NCBI GenBank assembly: GCA_965203355.1
Contig: OZ241889.1
Location: 1,632,001-1,696,000 of the forward strand
Direction of reading: 5' to 3'
From: Candidatus Latescibacterota bacterium
GTDB taxonomy: Bacteria; Latescibacterota; UBA2968; UBA8231
DNA: 64,000 nt
The translations under genes were made by a program, and so were the position numbers. Positions 2,579 to 18,811 of the stretch are shown piece after piece; position 1 is the stretch's first letter, and each line of letters begins with the position of its first letter. The notes beneath the pieces were generated by a model, which was not told the DNA's origin, did not search any database, and saw nothing but the letters and a program-made list of their open reading frames with translations.

Positions 2579-3820
2579 TTAGAGCAGGATCCCGGCCACG
2601 CAGGCGGTCATAAAGCAGGCGAGGGAGCCGCCCAGCATGGCGCGAAAACCCAGCCGCGCCAAGTCGCGCCGCCGCTCGGGAGCAATGCCGCCGATGCCGC
2701 CGAGTTGGATGCCAATGCTACTGAAGTTGGCAAAACCACACAGGGCATAGGTCAGGATAACCACCGAGCGCTGGCTTAGCTCTACGCCCGATCCGGGCTG
2801 AATCCACTGGCTCAGTTGGACGTACGAGACGAATTCGTTGGCCACCATTTTCTTGCCCAACAACTCGCCGGCCAGCAAACAATCTTTGGCTTCAATGCCC
2901 ATCAACCAAGCAAAGGGCGCGAATAGATAACCCAACGCCGCGGACAAAGACCACGCTAGATCTTCCATACCGAGCATGTAGCCTACGCCTTGGCCCAACA
3001 GACCCAGCGCTCCATCTACTAAGGCGATCAACCCCAGTGCCGCAATGAGCATGGCGGCCACGTTCAGGGCCAGCCGCAGGCCGTCCAAGGTGCCGTTGGC
3101 CGCGGCTTCCACCACATTGGTGGCCGTGCGCTCTACCTCAAGCGACACCCGCCCCAGCGTTTTGGACGCTTCCACTTCGGGCTGCATCACTTTGGCCACC
3201 AATAGTGCCGCCGGAGCCGAGATCACCGAGGCGGCTACCAAGTGCCCAGCGTCCATGCCCAGGCCCACGAAGGCCGCTAATACGCCTCCGGCAATGGTGG
3301 CAAAGCCGCCGACCATCAAGGCCATCAATTCCGACCGGGTCATGCTGGCCACGTACGGGCGCACCACCAGCGGAGCCTCGGTCTGGCCGACGAAGATGTT
3401 GGCCGCCGCGGCTAGGCTTTCCGCGCCCGAGGTGCGCAGGGTACGCTGCATGACCCAAGCGAAAGCCGCTATCACATACTGCACTAGCCCCAAGTGGTAG
3501 AGCACACCCATTAGGGCGGCAAAGAAGATAATGGTCGGCAGGACCTTGAAAGCGAAGAAATGCTCGCCGAATGCGTCGCCAAAGACAAAACTAGAGCCGG
3601 CATCGACGTAGTTGAGCAAGGCGGTGAAAAAAGCACCGATGTAACCGAAAAATGCCTGCCCAGGTCCGGTCTTGAGGACGAGTAGGGCGAGGAGAAATTG
3701 CAGCCCCACGCCAGCCGCTACCAAGCGGAGATTTACGTTGCGGCGATCGGTGCTCATGGCGAAGACGAGGGCGATCATCACCAAAAGTCCGAATAGACTG
3801 ATCAACCGTTCCATCGGCAT
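2579..3820 (-). CDS. nupC: NupC/CNT family concentrative nucleoside transporter
   Basis: FAFKVLPTIIFF, NIFVGQTEAPL, GFATIAGGV, NEFVSY, YALCGFANFSSIGIQLGG. Confidence 0.93.
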   Translation of the reverse strand: MPMERLISLFGLLVMIALVFAMSTDRRNVNLRLVAAGVGLQFLLALLVLKTGPGQAFFGYIGAFFTALLNYVDAGSSFVFGDAFGEHFFAFKVLPTIIFFAALMGVLYHLGLVQYVIAAFAWVMQRTLRTSGAESLAAAANIFVGQTEAPLVVRPYVASMTRSELMALMVGGFATIAGGVLAAFVGLGMDAGHLVAASVISAPAALLVAKVMQPEVEASKTLGRVSLEVERTATNVVEAAANGTLDGLRLALNVAAMLIAALGLIALVDGALGLLGQGVGYMLGMEDLAWSLSAALGYLFAPFAWLMGIEAKDCLLAGELLGKKMVANEFVSYVQLSQWIQPGSGVELSQRSVVILTYALCGFANFSSIGIQLGGIGGIAPERRRDLARLGFRAMLGGSLACFMTACVAGILL

Positions 3821-3904: not shown

Positions 3905-4549
3905 TTATCGACGCCAAGCTGCTTTTAGGTGGCCCCAAGTGGTTGCGGCGATAGCACTGGATGTGCCAACGGGATGGAATTCCCAGGTCGCGACGCCAGT
4001 CTCCCGCGAGGTCGTGAGAAGCAGGGTATCCCCTTCAATGGCATACGAGCTAATTCCCAACTCATTGAGTACGGCGAGGAATTGCACCTGAGCGAGTTCA
4101 GCGAAAAATGCGTCGATAAATTCCCGTTCAAAGGCCGGGTAGTTTTCAGCGGGGATTTCGTGCGAGTCGGCTACATAGCGGGCAAAGTCGCGGGCTACTT
4201 GGGTGAAGAATTCGACGAAGCCTTTGCCGTCCACTGAAATGTCTAATGCGTCTATACCCAGCACGAGATTGTTGCCAAAGATGCTATACGTGCCGGTGCC
4301 GTGGGCGACAATCGTCTCTATGGTGGGGGGTTGCGGGACTTGGACGGCGGCGAGGAAATCGTCTTTTACCTGAATGACTTGGTCGATCGCAAAGGCTCCA
4401 TCTGCCTCAAAGGTCAGGCGAATGGCAATCTCGCCGATTTGTGCATCGCTGATGGTGCTCTCCCAAGTGCCGTGCAGAGCCTCTTGCTGAGCATGGCTCG
4501 ACGCCGCGAGCAGGCAGAGTAAGAGGACAGACGACGGGAACTGGCGCAT
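3905..4549 (-). CDS. Secreted hypothetical protein with C-terminal TTWGxLK motif
   Basis: ATG at 4549 with AGGAG RBS; signal peptide ending ASSHA; ends SAIAATTWGHLKAAWRR. Confidence 0.7.
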   Translation of the reverse strand: MRQFPSSVLLLCLLAASSHAQQEALHGTWESTISDAQIGEIAIRLTFEADGAFAIDQVIQVKDDFLAAVQVPQPPTIETIVAHGTGTYSIFGNNLVLGIDALDISVDGKGFVEFFTQVARDFARYVADSHEIPAENYPAFEREFIDAFFAELAQVQFLAVLNELGISSYAIEGDTLLLTTSRETGVATWEFHPVGTSSAIAATTWGHLKAAWRR

Positions 4550-15115: not shown

Positions 15116-16752
15116 AGGGTTGTGGTGTGCTGCTGCTGTGGATGGCGGCCTGCGCGCCTACGGACGACCGGCCCTTCGTCGACAAGGCTAGTGAGTGGGG
15201 CATAGAGCGGCCCCACGTCGGCGGCGGCGCGGAAAAGCGCTATATCGTCGAAGCCAAAGGCGGTGGGGCCGCGCTGCTCGACGCGGATGGCGATGGCGAT
15301 TTGGATATCTATTGGGTCAATGGGGAGGGCGGCGACAATGCGCTCTACCGCAACGACCGCGGCCGGGGCTTTGTCGATCGAGCGGCCGCGGCCCGGGTCT
15401 TGGGGCGCGGCTGGGGCATGGGTGCGCTGAGCGCGGATTACGATGCCGACGGCGATGCCGACCTGTACATCACCTGCCTGCGGGAAAACATCCTCTATCG
15501 CAACGACGGATTAGAGCAATTCGCCGATGCCACGGCCCGCGCTGGGTTGGCGCTGCCGGTGTGGAGTACGGGCGCGGCCATGGGCGATGCGGACTTGGAC
15601 GGCGACTTGGATTTGTACGTGGCCAATTACGCGGATTTTGACTCGACGGTGGTGCGGCCCTTGGGGACGCAGTGGAAGGGCCGCGACGTATTCATCGGCC
15701 CGCTGGGCTTGCCCGCGCTCCCAGACGCGCTCTACCGCAACGATGGGGCTGGCCTCTTTGCCGAGGTGACGGCGGCTAGCGGCCTCGAGCCGCGCGATCC
15801 GGGCTATGGGTTTGCCGTATTGTTCATCGACAGCGACGACGACGGGGATTTGGACCTGTACGTCGCCAACGACTCAACGCCCAATTTCCTCTACCGCAAC
15901 GATGGCGCGGGTATCTTTGCCGAAGTGGGGCTACAGGCCCATGCCGCGCTGGGGGAAACGGGCTTGGCGCAGGCTGGCATGGGCGCGGCTTGGGGCGATT
16001 TTGACAACGATGGCGACGGCGATTTGCTGGTCACCAATTTTGAAGACGACTACAACACGCTCTACCGCAACACCGGCGGCGCGTTTGCGGATGTGAGTTT
16101 TGCCGCGGGCTTGGGCCGCCTCAGCTTGCCCCACGTGGGTTTTGGCGCGGTCTTTTTCGACTTTGACAACGACGCCGACCAAGACTTGTTCGTGGCTAAC
16201 GGGCATGTGTACCCGCAGATCGAACGCCCGGGCAGCGGCGCGACCTACGCGCAAGCCAATCACTTGTTCGCCAATGACGCTGGACGTTTCCGCCTCGTCG
16301 AGTTGGGTGAGGACCGGGCGGTCAGTCGCGGCGCGGTGGCCGGGGATTTTGACGACGATGGCCGCGTGGATCTGTTCGTCACCAATCTCAACGGCCAGCC
16401 CTCCTTGCTGCACAACCAGATGGCCGCTGCTCATCACTGGCTCGGTGTGCGTCTCGTGGGCGCGGGGAAAAACCGCGAGGCCGTTGGCGCGAAGGTCGTA
16501 TTGTGGAGCGGCGGCCAAAGACAGCGGCGGGACGTGCTCTGCGGCGAGAGCTTCTTGAGCAGCGGCGACCGGCGCGTTCACTTTGGCTTGGGTGCGGCGG
16601 GCCGGGCGGATTCGCTGCACATTTACTGGCCGAGCGGTGTGCTGCAACGGCTGGCTAACTTGCCGATTGACACGTATGTGAACGTTGTGGAAGGGGGGAG
16701 GGGTTGGGGCGTGGCAAATAGGACGGTTCGAGGGGATTCAAGAGCAGATTAA
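15112..16752 (+). CDS. CRTAC1 family protein (FG-GAP/VCBS repeats plus ASPIC/UnbV domain), probable lipoprotein
   Basis: Repeated DxDxDGDxDL motifs; AVGAKV...ESFLS...VHFGLG...IYWPSG; TTG at 15112 overlaps the RND stop; MAAC lipobox. Confidence 0.88.
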   Translation: MKGCGVLLLWMAACAPTDDRPFVDKASEWGIERPHVGGGAEKRYIVEAKGGGAALLDADGDGDLDIYWVNGEGGDNALYRNDRGRGFVDRAAAARVLGRGWGMGALSADYDADGDADLYITCLRENILYRNDGLEQFADATARAGLALPVWSTGAAMGDADLDGDLDLYVANYADFDSTVVRPLGTQWKGRDVFIGPLGLPALPDALYRNDGAGLFAEVTAASGLEPRDPGYGFAVLFIDSDDDGDLDLYVANDSTPNFLYRNDGAGIFAEVGLQAHAALGETGLAQAGMGAAWGDFDNDGDGDLLVTNFEDDYNTLYRNTGGAFADVSFAAGLGRLSLPHVGFGAVFFDFDNDADQDLFVANGHVYPQIERPGSGATYAQANHLFANDAGRFRLVELGEDRAVSRGAVAGDFDDDGRVDLFVTNLNGQPSLLHNQMAAAHHWLGVRLVGAGKNREAVGAKVVLWSGGQRQRRDVLCGESFLSSGDRRVHFGLGAAGRADSLHIYWPSGVLQRLANLPIDTYVNVVEGGRGWGVANRTVRGDSRAD

Positions 16753-16779
16753 CGAGCGGCTAAACAATTGGTACGTGCG

Positions 16780-17242
16780 TTATGCAAATGGAATAGGAAG
16801 CTGAGCGGGTATATCTGGAGTAGAAATCCGCAGAGGCGAATCTCCCAATTGGCCGTTCAATCGCAAAAGGTCATCGTCAAAAGTATACAACACGTCAACG
16901 CCTTCGGTCATTGAGGCTGTTGCCACGTGGATAGAGTCCTTAGGATTAAGGTGAGGATAGCGCCATATTAAGATCGCGAGCCCATTCGGCTGTTCGTCGA
17001 TCTACGTTGACAATACTTACGAACTCTTGTTCAAAAAATTCCTTGATGGTCTCTTCTTTACTTTGAGACAATGGTTGCTGGCCTTTGATCTTGATAACCT
17101 CCGTCAATGTTAATGCCGAAGTGATTATTTTCACTTCTCCCTTCTCAGAGGAAATAACTAATCCACGACAGGCTTCTACTTTGTCCCGCTCTCGGTTGAA
17201 CCATCCGATAAATACGTCGGCATCGCAATACACTTTCCGCAT
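16780..17242 (-). pseudogene. PIN-domain (VapC-like) ribonuclease with a single-base frameshift
   Basis: First frame MRKVYCDADVF...TSALTLTEV...EWARDL; shifted frame continues IWRYPHLNPKDSIHVATA...LYTFDDDLL...PIPFA to TAA at 16780. Span is 463 nt (3n+1). Confidence 0.85.
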
Positions 17243-17248
17243 ATGGGA

Positions 17249-18004
17249 TCACTCAGCGAGAATACCCAGCACATCGTTCCAAGATGGCAGTTCGTTTTTG
17301 GGGCGAAGTTTTCTAAATTCCTCAACATTGATATTGATCGGCGTACCATTGCGCCGATATTGAATAAGCCCTGAAACCGATACGCGCCGATCCATCTTAG
17401 GATCAAAAGACCGCAGCACATCGTCCCACAATTCGCTAGGGAAATAGCAGTTGATATTGCGGCCCGATATATCATCATCAATAGAAAAGCGCGTCTTGCC
17501 TCGCCTGCTGAGCACTTGAATCCGTCCTTCAACCGTACCGTGGACAGCGTATTTTCCTTGTAATAACTGGTCGACCGACGCAACAGATCGAGACGACATT
17601 TTAGTAGCCTGTCCTTTGTATCGGACCTGTACTGTACTCAGATCGCCTTCGGACTGGGAGAGCACTTCGCCCATGGTCTTGGCAGCCTCCAATGCTTTTT
17701 CCAAAAAATGCTCAGGCCAGACATCATCCCCCACTTCAAGGGCCGCAAGCCCAGTTTGAATCGCATCAATGGCCACAGGGATCTTTTCGGGGCGCAGCCT
17801 ATTTGCTTCTGGAGTGATGTGTACGCGTACGCTGCCCGGCTCAACCGAAAGAAGCCAATCTAAAGCGTGCGACTTCCCGGCTACGCTATTGGCTACCTCA
17901 TCGGCCATTTGCAAGAACGCATTAAAGCCTTTTCTAAAATGCTGGGCCGTAATCCGCGGACCGTCAATCTCAAACACAAGCGAATTTGGCGAGGATTTGG
18001 TCAT
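17249..18004 (-). CDS. Hypothetical protein upstream of the PIN gene; C-terminal OB-fold-like region
   Basis: 251-aa ORF in an AT-richer islet, ending 6 nt before the PIN start; beta-rich GTVEGRI..FSI..INCYF..RVSVSGLIQY..INVEE. Confidence 0.75.
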   Translation of the reverse strand: MTKSSPNSLVFEIDGPRITAQHFRKGFNAFLQMADEVANSVAGKSHALDWLLSVEPGSVRVHITPEANRLRPEKIPVAIDAIQTGLAALEVGDDVWPEHFLEKALEAAKTMGEVLSQSEGDLSTVQVRYKGQATKMSSRSVASVDQLLQGKYAVHGTVEGRIQVLSRRGKTRFSIDDDISGRNINCYFPSELWDDVLRSFDPKMDRRVSVSGLIQYRRNGTPININVEEFRKLRPKNELPSWNDVLGILAE

Positions 18005-18106
18005 GGGTAGAAGGTTCAAGTTCCAGTTTATAAAGGAGTTGGCAAAGTAATGTTCCTGTATCACAGAATCAAGCTAAATTTTGGATGCCGTGTAAATCTA
18101 GTGCTC

Positions 18107-18138
18107 AAAAAACGCGGGGCAATCAGGATGCCGCCGCG
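18107..18138 (-). terminator. Rho-independent terminator after the DUF4159 gene
   Basis: Minus strand CGCGGCGGCA-TCCTGAT-TGCCCCGCG-TTTTTT. Confidence 0.75.
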
Positions 18139-18151
18139 ATCGCTTGCATTC

Positions 18152-18811
18152 CTAGTGGCTCAATGCCCAGACCGCGATGTTGGCCCCCATTTTGAGGGCG
18201 TCGAGTCGCTTGCTCTCCGGGTCGCTGTGGACGTCGGGGTCCTCCCAGCCATCGCCTAGGTCCGCCTCATACGTGTACAGCACGGCTAGACGCTCGCCCG
18301 TGAAAAGCGCGAGTGCTTGCGGCCTTTTGCCGTCGTGCTCGTGGACTTTGGGCAGGCCGGCTGGCAACTCGAAGTGGCAGTGGAACAGGGGGTGATCGGG
18401 CGGCAATTCCACCCACTCGGCACTGGGGAAGACTTGGCGCATGGCGCGGCGGAAGCTCTCGTCCATGCCGTAGTTGTCGTCGGCGTGGAGAAAACCGCCG
18501 CTTTCCAAATAGTGCCGAAGCCGCGCGGCCTCCTCGGCGGAAAAAGCCACATTGCCGTGCCCGGTCATGTAGAGGTACGGATAAGAAAACAGCTCCTCGT
18601 CCATGATTTGTACGCGCGCCTCGGTTTCGGCTGCGTCGATTTGGGTATGCTCTCTTAAGAAGCGGAGCAGGTTGGGCAGGGAAGAGGGGTCGCTGTACCA
18701 GTCGCCGCCGCCGCCGTATTGCAGCCGCGCAATGGTAAATAGGGGCTGAGCCGGGCCATTTACTGCGAGGCATGCCATGGCGAGCGCGGCGTAGAGGGCC
18801 AAGCCGCGCAT
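18152..18811 (-). CDS. DUF4159 domain protein
   Basis: YGGGGDWYSDPSSLPNL, YMTGHGN, GGFLHADDNYG, PKVHEHDG, DLGDGWED. Confidence 0.85.
   Translation of the reverse strand: MRGLALYAALAMACLAVNGPAQPLFTIARLQYGGGGDWYSDPSSLPNLLRFLREHTQIDAAETEARVQIMDEELFSYPYLYMTGHGNVAFSAEEAARLRHYLESGGFLHADDNYGMDESFRRAMRQVFPSAEWVELPPDHPLFHCHFELPAGLPKVHEHDGKRPQALALFTGERLAVLYTYEADLGDGWEDPDVHSDPESKRLDALKMGANIAVWALSH

Follow-up and report, generated by a model that had tools for sequence, protein, structure and literature searches.

Toxins of the VapC type, which are PIN proteins, are the most numerous of the toxin-antitoxin toxins, and the antitoxins known to accompany them are, to our knowledge, small DNA-binding proteins with disordered tails. 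The C-termini of these antitoxins, VapB, bind across the active-site groove of VapC. A two-gene module that resembles VapBC in part lies in the window analysed here, a stretch of 64,000 nucleotides from a Candidatus Latescibacterota bacterium (contig OZ241889.1, positions 1,632,001 to 1,696,000 of the forward strand), where a gene for a protein of unnamed family, called the partner in what follows, precedes a PIN gene. As in VapBC, the toxin is a VapC-like PIN protein with four acidic residues, the putative antitoxin gene comes first in a tightly spaced, co-oriented bicistron, and the upstream protein is predicted to bind the PIN protein by its C-terminal segment. The differences concern the partner, which has 251 amino acids against 70-90 in a typical VapB, is folded throughout according to its structural model, carries no AbrB, RHH, Phd or HTH domain, appears to consist of a ferredoxin-like domain followed by an OB fold, and is predicted to use a face of the OB fold, beyond the tail alone, as interface. 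Since the module is VapBC-like but is without the small DNA-binding antitoxin that defines that system, it is not counted as a member of VapBC.

The locus is probably, with a good share of doubt retained, a type II toxin-antitoxin-like module in which a VapC-type toxin is paired with a new family of large, folded antitoxins, a module that is mobile and that is degenerate in the window. A widespread unnamed family of folded proteins of ~250 residues may thus neutralise PIN toxins by means of an OB face and a short helix. If this is true, the family would represent a new antitoxin architecture, would put a name to many 'hypothetical proteins', the family numbering at least 1169 clusters at 50% identity, and would offer a tractable case of a nucleic-acid-binding fold reused as protein inhibitor or sensor. 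The copy in the window is a decayed instance, and its value lies in the family rather than in the locus.

In the main text of the NetFlax study (Ernits et al. 2023, PMC10440598) PIN toxins pair with several unrelated antitoxin domains, PanA and RHH being among those named, and the idea that toxins swap their partners applies to the present module as well. Neither 'OB-fold' nor 'OB fold' occurs in that main text, and neither OB-fold nor transposase occurs in the main text of a classification of PIN domains (PMC5499597). A published description of the partner/PIN pair was not found, the supplements of these two papers, which are possible sources, lying outside the search. Toxin-antitoxin pairs carried within Tn3-family transposons are described in the passages considered here of a preprint (10.1101/848275). 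Two plasmid modules related to that of the window are likewise found inside terminal inverted repeats, beside a transposase; measured against those passages, they differ in their IS1595-family carrier, in the antitoxin family and in a third small open reading frame (ORF) after the PIN gene, and the window copy differs in that no transposase adjoins it. Carriage by IS1595 would be the second example, after Tn3, of toxin-antitoxin pairs within simple transposable elements.

Arrangement of the two genes

An earlier note, made from the sequence of the window, had described a 251-amino-acid gene followed 6 nucleotides later by a PIN gene, and this arrangement is confirmed on the minus strand, with the partner gene at 18004-17249 and the PIN gene at 17242-16780 (Table 1). 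The partner stop is followed by 6 nucleotides (17248-17243) and then by the PIN ATG at 17242. Both genes are real by homology, each having many homologues. The ATG at 18004 is kept in all seven Latescibacterota loci compared (the window and six syntenic loci), while a longer GTG ORF reaching to 18064 is not conserved. The operon anatomy, with the partner first, the 6-nucleotide gap found both in the window and in four relatives with an intact PIN gene, and a conserved leader, speaks for a toxin-antitoxin module.

Table 1. Features of the module and of its surroundings in the window, and state of the PIN gene in the syntenic loci
Feature	Position	Strand	Remarks
Partner gene, 251 amino acids	17249..18004	-	Putative antitoxin; ATG at 18004, TGA 17249-17251
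PIN gene, 5' part, 98 codons to premature stop (16946-16948)	16946..17242	-	Holds D7 and E48
Single extra A, shift of the PIN frame	16968..16969	-	DNA alignment with 4 intact relatives
PIN gene, 3' part, shifted frame	16780..16959	-	Holds D102 (KDS) and D122 (TFDD); stop 16782-16780
Conserved leader, ~85 nucleotides, 5' of partner ATG	18005..18088	-	Alignment of 7 loci
Terminator-like hairpin and T run	18118..18135	-	GGCGGCATCCTGATTGCC then CCGCGTTTTT; directly past DUF4159 stop
Upstream DUF4159 gene	18811-18152	-	PF13709, E 8.6e-70
PIN gene, window locus			Frameshifted
PIN gene, loci L001, L003, L004, L005			Intact, 152-153 amino acids; 6 nucleotides after partner
PIN gene, locus L006			Cut after 17 codons
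PIN gene, locus L002			Absent (deleted)
PIN remnant, cargo and transposase stretches, locus L006	5876-9411 and 3756-4748	- (5876-9411)	

The partner family and its fold

The size of the partner, about three times that usual for VapB as had been remarked from the sequence, is shared by its family. When 1.84 billion cluster representatives (clusters at 50% identity) were searched exhaustively with HMMER, 1169 passed E ≤ 1e-3, of which 439 also passed E ≤ 1e-10 and 45 also E ≤ 1e-30; the 150 best relatives are mostly of 236-260 amino acids, nearly all being aligned over the greater part of their sequence. Those Atlas clusters that lie nearest are annotated 'hypothetical protein', have no Pfam domain in common and belong most commonly to Acidobacteriota and Cyanobacteriota. 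The only Pfam match of the window partner is a sub-threshold one to the OB family PF01336 (tRNA_anti-codon; residues 157-233, E 0.013, 15.8 bits against a cut-off of 27), a family that is matched at E ≤ 0.01 by 8 of 137 family members, the best at 5.2e-7. NCBIfam and PADLOC gave no match for the window partner; among the 137 members none was matched by PHROGs and one by NCBIfam, a spurious hit to oadA. A profile of the partner sequence compared with PDB chains gave nothing under E 0.4. PADLOC-DB 2.0.0 gave no match either for the two PIN pieces of the window, the intact pair of L001 or three distant partner homologues, so that the pair corresponds to no described model in PADLOC, Pfam, NCBIfam or PHROGs, in line with the novelty proposed for it.

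The AlphaFold2 model of the partner, computed from an alignment of 137 rows, is of high confidence (predicted local distance difference test, pLDDT, 94.6; predicted template modelling score, pTM, 0.83). In it an alpha/beta domain (order b-a-b-b-a-a-b-b-a) spans residues 1-150, a five-stranded barrel that is an OB fold spans residues 152-232, and a helix bearing the family motif LPxxxDVxGIL spans residues 242-250. The alpha/beta N-terminus, the beta-rich OB-like domain and the short tail that had been read from the sequence are all recovered in this way, the second as a true OB fold and the third as a conserved tail. In a Foldseek comparison with the PDB the barrel only was matched, to the OB domains of Stn1, of the large subunit of ExoVII and of lysyl-tRNA synthetases (E 1.6e-4 to ~1e-3, TMq ~0.25). 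The N-terminal domain (N-domain) folded alone reached a pLDDT of 95.9 and found no significant match in the PDB (best E 0.05); its weak matches were all ferredoxin-like, which suggests a fold class and identifies no relative.

Near-invariant positions of the family are distributed over both halves of the protein, F30, W50, G57, S58, G85, P97 and F100 lying in the N-domain and G156, G160, C186, R207, G212, G220, P240 and G247 in the C-terminal half. One relative of 156 amino acids (P0026) comprises little beyond the OB fold and the C-terminal tail and is without the N-domain, which hints, on sequence grounds, that the PIN-binding half can exist alone. N-terminal extensions seen in some members had been considered as fused domains and are probably mis-called starts instead.

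Predicted complex of partner and PIN

The prediction of the complex used the intact PIN protein of L001 and the partner encoded beside it, with a separate alignment for each of the two chains, and was accompanied by three controls. The median ipSAE was 0.74 (0.73-0.76 in three runs) against 0.12 in the best control, with a contact agreement between runs of at least 91% and a partner pLDDT of at least 84. Of 157 solved complexes 116 attained this mark, as did 2 of 215 mismatched pairs, counts that are rough when user alignments are supplied; a pass of this test supports binding and does not show it. Because no relative of the partner has been solved, a pass produced by a remembered, similar complex is unlikely on the partner side.

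In the predicted complex the partner contributes a face of the OB fold (residues 152-159, 178-180, 207-220 and 233-236) and the C-terminal segment 239-250, and the PIN protein contributes residues 12-17, 22, 29-33, 40, 43, 52-83 and 111-113, which adjoin the invariant catalytic positions without including them. The tail of the partner had been thought reminiscent of VapC-binding antitoxin tails, a resemblance borne out to the extent that the model places it in contact with PIN. Five of the eight near-invariant positions of the C-terminal half (G156, R207, G220, P240 and G247) fall in the interface, as against none of the seven in the N-domain. The prediction thus supports binding of the partner to PIN, with the C-terminal helix and one face of the OB fold as the points of contact.

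The PIN gene and its frameshift

The PIN protein of the window is split. Its 5' part, which covers 60% of the intact PIN protein of L001 at 86% identity, matches Pfam PIN (PF01850) at E 5.1e-5 over profile positions 1-83 of 120, and its 3' part matches at E 0.0095 over positions 89-118, whereas the PIN protein of an intact relative matches at E 3.9e-14. At the site of the shift the window reads CTTAATATGG, against CTT-ATATGG in four of four intact relatives. The acidic residues that had been pointed out in CDAD, TEV, KDS and TFDD correspond to D7, E48, D102 and D122, the four invariant acidic columns of an alignment of 89 PIN sequences, and the insertion of one nucleotide leaves two of them, D102 and D122, out of frame. 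The best explanation of these observations is that the toxin of the window would be dead through this insertion and that the partner alone is intact here. The protein database carries an identical 98-amino-acid form of PIN for a contig of 4.17 Mb; the shift therefore belongs to the assembly as deposited.

Relatives of the PIN protein are labelled 'VapC family toxin' in database sources. Two of them (P0190 and P0202), with 83% identity to a Latescibacterota PIN, are named by NCBI as Gemmatimonadetes metagenome-assembled genomes (MAGs), which indicates either transfer between phyla or mis-binned contigs. Short PIN forms of 98-115 amino acids are present in other assemblies (P0246, P0260, P0285 and P0293); these, and a partner of 190 amino acids (P0019), may reflect either additional cases of decay or artefacts at the ends of contigs.

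Asymmetric decay and selection in Latescibacterota

A genome scan with an 11-sequence alignment of close relatives, whose reach is that of close relatives only, returned six loci, all in Latescibacterota MAGs, with 81-88% identity and all with the module. In five of the six the module sits between the same DUF4159 gene and an FG-GAP-type gene. Including the window, the partner is intact in seven of seven loci and PIN or a remnant of it is present in six of seven, so that PIN has been lost three times and the partner never. This polarity, with the partner kept and the toxin lost, is the one expected if a prior loss of the partner is lethal.

The ratio of non-synonymous to synonymous substitution (dN/dS) of the partner is 0.16-0.33 over all 21 pairs and 0.21-0.23 among the three genomes without a working PIN gene, the values elsewhere being 0.18-0.25 for PIN and 0.07-0.15 for the DUF4159 gene. 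The partner is hence under purifying selection even where no working PIN accompanies it, and it may do work independent of PIN. This suggests, as far as codon comparisons go, that the partner may have a role beyond neutralising this one toxin. Its persistence would fit an orphan antitoxin that confers, for example, immunity to incoming copies, and an independent function would fit equally. The module has a synonymous divergence (dS) of 0.21-0.50, equal to the 0.22-0.40 of the DUF4159 gene next to it, from which it follows that the ancestor shared by these loci already had the module, which has passed down vertically from then on.

Distant pairs on plasmids

Translated searches (tblastn) of 72,556 plasmids with the partner and with two distant members of the family (P0036 and P0100) gave no match. 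With the intact PIN protein as query one plasmid was found, Methylobacterium oryzae pMOC1, at 38% identity, in which an IS1595 transposase, a 288-amino-acid 'hypothetical protein', a 'VapC family toxin' and a 62-amino-acid ORF are arrayed, the toxin gene overlapping the 288-amino-acid gene by 17 nucleotides. The hypothetical protein is aligned to the partner profile by hhalign over 219 columns (probability 97.3, E 2.7e-11); BLASTP against the window partner detected almost nothing. The pMOC1 PIN protein as query led to a second plasmid, Roseomonas marmotae p1318-1, with an IS1595 transposase, a 266-amino-acid hypothetical protein, a PIN protein and a 61-amino-acid ORF in the same order as in pMOC1 and with a 2-nucleotide gap between partner and PIN. 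Here the hypothetical protein is aligned to the partner profile over 218 columns (probability 93.5, E 2.3e-7) and the PIN protein to the PIN profile (probability 96.2). Further searches with both plasmid partners and the Roseomonas PIN protein gave no additional plasmid records.

Both plasmids are alphaproteobacterial, and in each of the two pairs a partner homologue lies directly upstream of PIN. Linkage of partner homologues to PIN, on which the proposal of a two-gene module depended, thus holds where the context is seen, that is, in two of two plasmid instances and in six of seven Latescibacterota loci, remnants included. Five partner clusters and PIN clusters have longest contigs of equal size (3124, 2957, 3041, 2475 and 4562970), circumstantial evidence that they come from the same contigs.

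Both plasmid transposases carry the zinc-ribbon and DDE domains of IS1595. At plasmid locus L008, inverted repeats of 38 nucleotides (76% complementary; 681-718 and 3275-3312) enclose exactly four genes, namely transposase, partner, PIN and small ORF, and at plasmid locus L007 repeats of 24 nucleotides (83%; 616-639 and 4005-4028) enclose the four genes and one further ORF, so that the L007 module is plausibly an IS1595 passenger as well. The window copy has neither a transposase nearby nor a flanking inverted repeat and does not show this feature of an IS1595 passenger. A metagenome member of the family (P0148) has at its N-terminus the C-terminal end of the IS1595 DDE domain (PF12762, E 6.3e-9), a fusion that is probably a gene call run through from an adjoining transposase. 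The small ORFs of the two plasmids, 61 and 62 amino acids long, are relatives of one another, sharing 43% identity over 35 residues (E 4e-6), and have no counterpart in the window.

Proposed mechanism and alternative readings

In the mechanism proposed, the downstream gene would encode a VapC-like PIN ribonuclease (RNase), the toxin, and the upstream gene a large globular antitoxin that would hold PIN inactive. The OB-fold face and the C-terminal helix would be laid on the helical groove beside the acidic pocket of PIN, and the N-domain, outside the predicted interface, would be left to serve another purpose, for instance dimerisation, binding of the operator or sensing. The module would move among genomes, its distant plasmid versions travelling as passengers of IS1595-family elements.

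Several observations weigh against this reading. The partner is without the DNA-binding domains of known VapB antitoxins, as judged by Pfam, and it is confidently folded throughout, unlike the classical antitoxins, which are labile and partly disordered. The genomic context is known for 9 loci, against 1169 representative clusters in the family. No fusion of partner and PIN and no longer fused form of the partner was found, a fact of weak evidential value, and the metagenome relative P0019 appears to be frameshifted at its end, from which it follows that the partner is not intact everywhere. The frameshift of the window could be either real or an assembly error. When lineage-specific codon changes of the partner are counted, that is, changes unique to one lineage while the other six agree, synonymous and non-synonymous changes number 19 and 10 in the PIN-less lineages and 18 and 11 in those with an intact PIN gene (Fisher p = 1.0), which again allows for a function of the partner itself. 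The evidence for the complex consists in the confidence of a model rather than in a measurement. The arrangement of the genes, the two folds, the size of the family, linkage in 9 loci, the decayed state of PIN and selection acting on the partner are shown, and toxicity, neutralisation, the trigger of release and any role in defence are matters that we infer.

A special case of the toxin-antitoxin reading, and an unlikely one, is abortive infection, in which the partner would act as a sensor that binds phage nucleic acid or protein and thereby frees a PIN protein that destroys RNA. The barrel belongs with the tRNA_anti-codon OB folds, which bind nucleic acid, by its likeness both to PF01336 and to the domains of Stn1, ExoVII and lysyl-tRNA synthetase, and the conserved positions of the N-domain, lying outside the PIN interface, would be available for sensing. 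In a single relative, L006, the place of PIN is taken by a Tiamat-like TmtA and an RNA ligase. Over its full length the partner model is, moreover, most similar in structure to phage proteins, one a DUF6575 protein (BFVD, E 1.2e-9, TMq 0.38) and two unnamed, and DUF6575 (PF20215) is also the nearest Pfam-named Atlas cluster, with an embedding score of 0.78. The parts of Vassallo et al. (2022, PMC9519451) considered here list DUF6575 as a domain new to phage defence and present one DUF6575 protein as a component of a defence system. Against this stand the low TM-scores of the three structural matches, 0.38-0.49 (E 1.2e-9 to 1.8e-8, 265-308 aligned columns), and the lack of a match to the Pfam model of DUF6575 in any of 137 family members at E ≤ 0.01, so that the likeness is structural and not at the level of sequence, and an Atlas score under 0.9 counts as no more than a lead. 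Neither protein matches PADLOC or, by tblastn for the partner and a search with PIN, any of 50,697 phage records, and the neighbours in the window are ordinary genes, namely an RND pump, FG-GAP, DUF4159 and propeller-protein genes; a defence-island setting, envisaged in the earlier note, is thus not borne out at this locus. The roles of abortive-infection RNase and of nucleic-acid sensing suggested there are ones that can at most be inferred.

A sensor antitoxin that would join these elements is quite improbable at present. The ferredoxin-like domain and the OB fold would read a nucleic-acid signal, such as phage single-stranded DNA or RNA, damaged or uncharged tRNA or an IS1595 transposition intermediate, the same OB face would hold or release VapC, and orphan partners would persist as immunity against incoming toxin copies. 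If this is so, RNA cleavage by the module would be tied to infection or to transposition.

That the two proteins form a two-subunit RNase, in which the OB protein would recruit the substrate and direct PIN to a particular RNA such as tRNA, is very unlikely. TiaS combines a ferredoxin-like domain with an OB domain. The OB domain of the partner resembles anticodon-binding domains, Foldseek also aligned the whole model to TiaS, a tRNA-labelling enzyme by PDB annotation (4rvz and 3au7; E ~1.6e-3, TMq 0.24), and a stable globular protein, as the pLDDT of 94.6 describes the partner, would suit such a subunit. The loss of PIN should, however, relax selection on an obligate partner, and selection persists; the most conserved OB face is predicted to be buried on PIN and not open to RNA; and low GC, carriage by an insertion sequence and repeated loss of PIN are marks of selfish or accessory modules. 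A stand-alone partner with its own cellular function, PIN being incidental or the remnant of a passenger array, would account for a gene that is intact and under purifying selection in three of three genomes without a working PIN, in a large family most of whose genomic contexts are unseen, but it is highly improbable given that gene order and tight spacing recur in two phyla between pairs alike only by profile comparison, that the complex prediction passes its controls and that conserved C-terminal residues map to the PIN interface.

Composition, leader and surroundings of the locus

The guanine-plus-cytosine (GC) content of the islet holding the toxin-antitoxin-like module is 0.44-0.52 (300-nucleotide intervals, 16650-18149), against 0.59-0.69 on either side and 0.611 for the window overall. 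The flanks converge, with a plus-strand FG-GAP/ASPIC gene that ends at 16752, 27 nucleotides from the PIN stop, facing minus-strand DUF4159 and propeller-protein genes, so that the AT-richer islet between convergent operons reported from the sequence is found as described. At third codon positions (GC3) the partner has 0.48-0.57 and PIN 0.43-0.46, both below the 0.77-0.79 of the DUF4159 gene beside them (window and syntenic loci), and the best explanation of this contrast is that the module is of foreign origin and was horizontally acquired. The ends of the islet show no flanking direct or inverted repeats resembling the ends of an element, and no second copy of the partner or PIN gene was found in the 64 kb.

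The terminator that had been supposed to insulate the islet is represented by the hairpin and T run at 18135-18118, past the DUF4159 stop; this terminator-like structure would end the DUF4159 operon and insulate the module. A scan for terminators picked out one such site, where shuffled sequences gave 1.5 on average; as the count does not exceed the shuffle mean, support comes from the placement of the hairpin and not from the count.

The leader is near-invariant across the seven loci, although the coding sequences of these genomes differ by 8-15% at the nucleotide level, and the sequence beyond it diverges. Promoter-like hexamers read by eye, TTGATT (18072-18067) and TACTTT (18049-18044), are separated by a 17-nucleotide spacer, and a small palindrome, CTGTGATACAG (18066-18056), also read by eye, lies between them and is a possible operator. 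No promoter was called in the leader by a promoter scanner, and an Rfam search of 16500-18400 gave no match at E ≤ 1.

The site of the module differs among the syntenic loci. In L006 the downstream flank is replaced by other genes, the DUF4159 gene is not seen in the stretch examined, and upstream of the partner there is a transposase of the IS4/5 family. The missing portion of PIN has given way there to two genes, one for an RNA ligase (PF09414, E 1.7e-30) and one of 879 amino acids that matches the PADLOC model of TmtA of the Tiamat system (E 3.5e-121), so that the site takes up defence-type cargo. In L003 (3764-4517) and the matching stretch of L004, genes for small membrane proteins with DUF2752 and DUF4234 are inserted between the DUF4159 gene and the module, a pair that is absent from the window. 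Taken together, the cargo of L006 and the insertions of L003 and L004 mark the site of the module as a variable spot.

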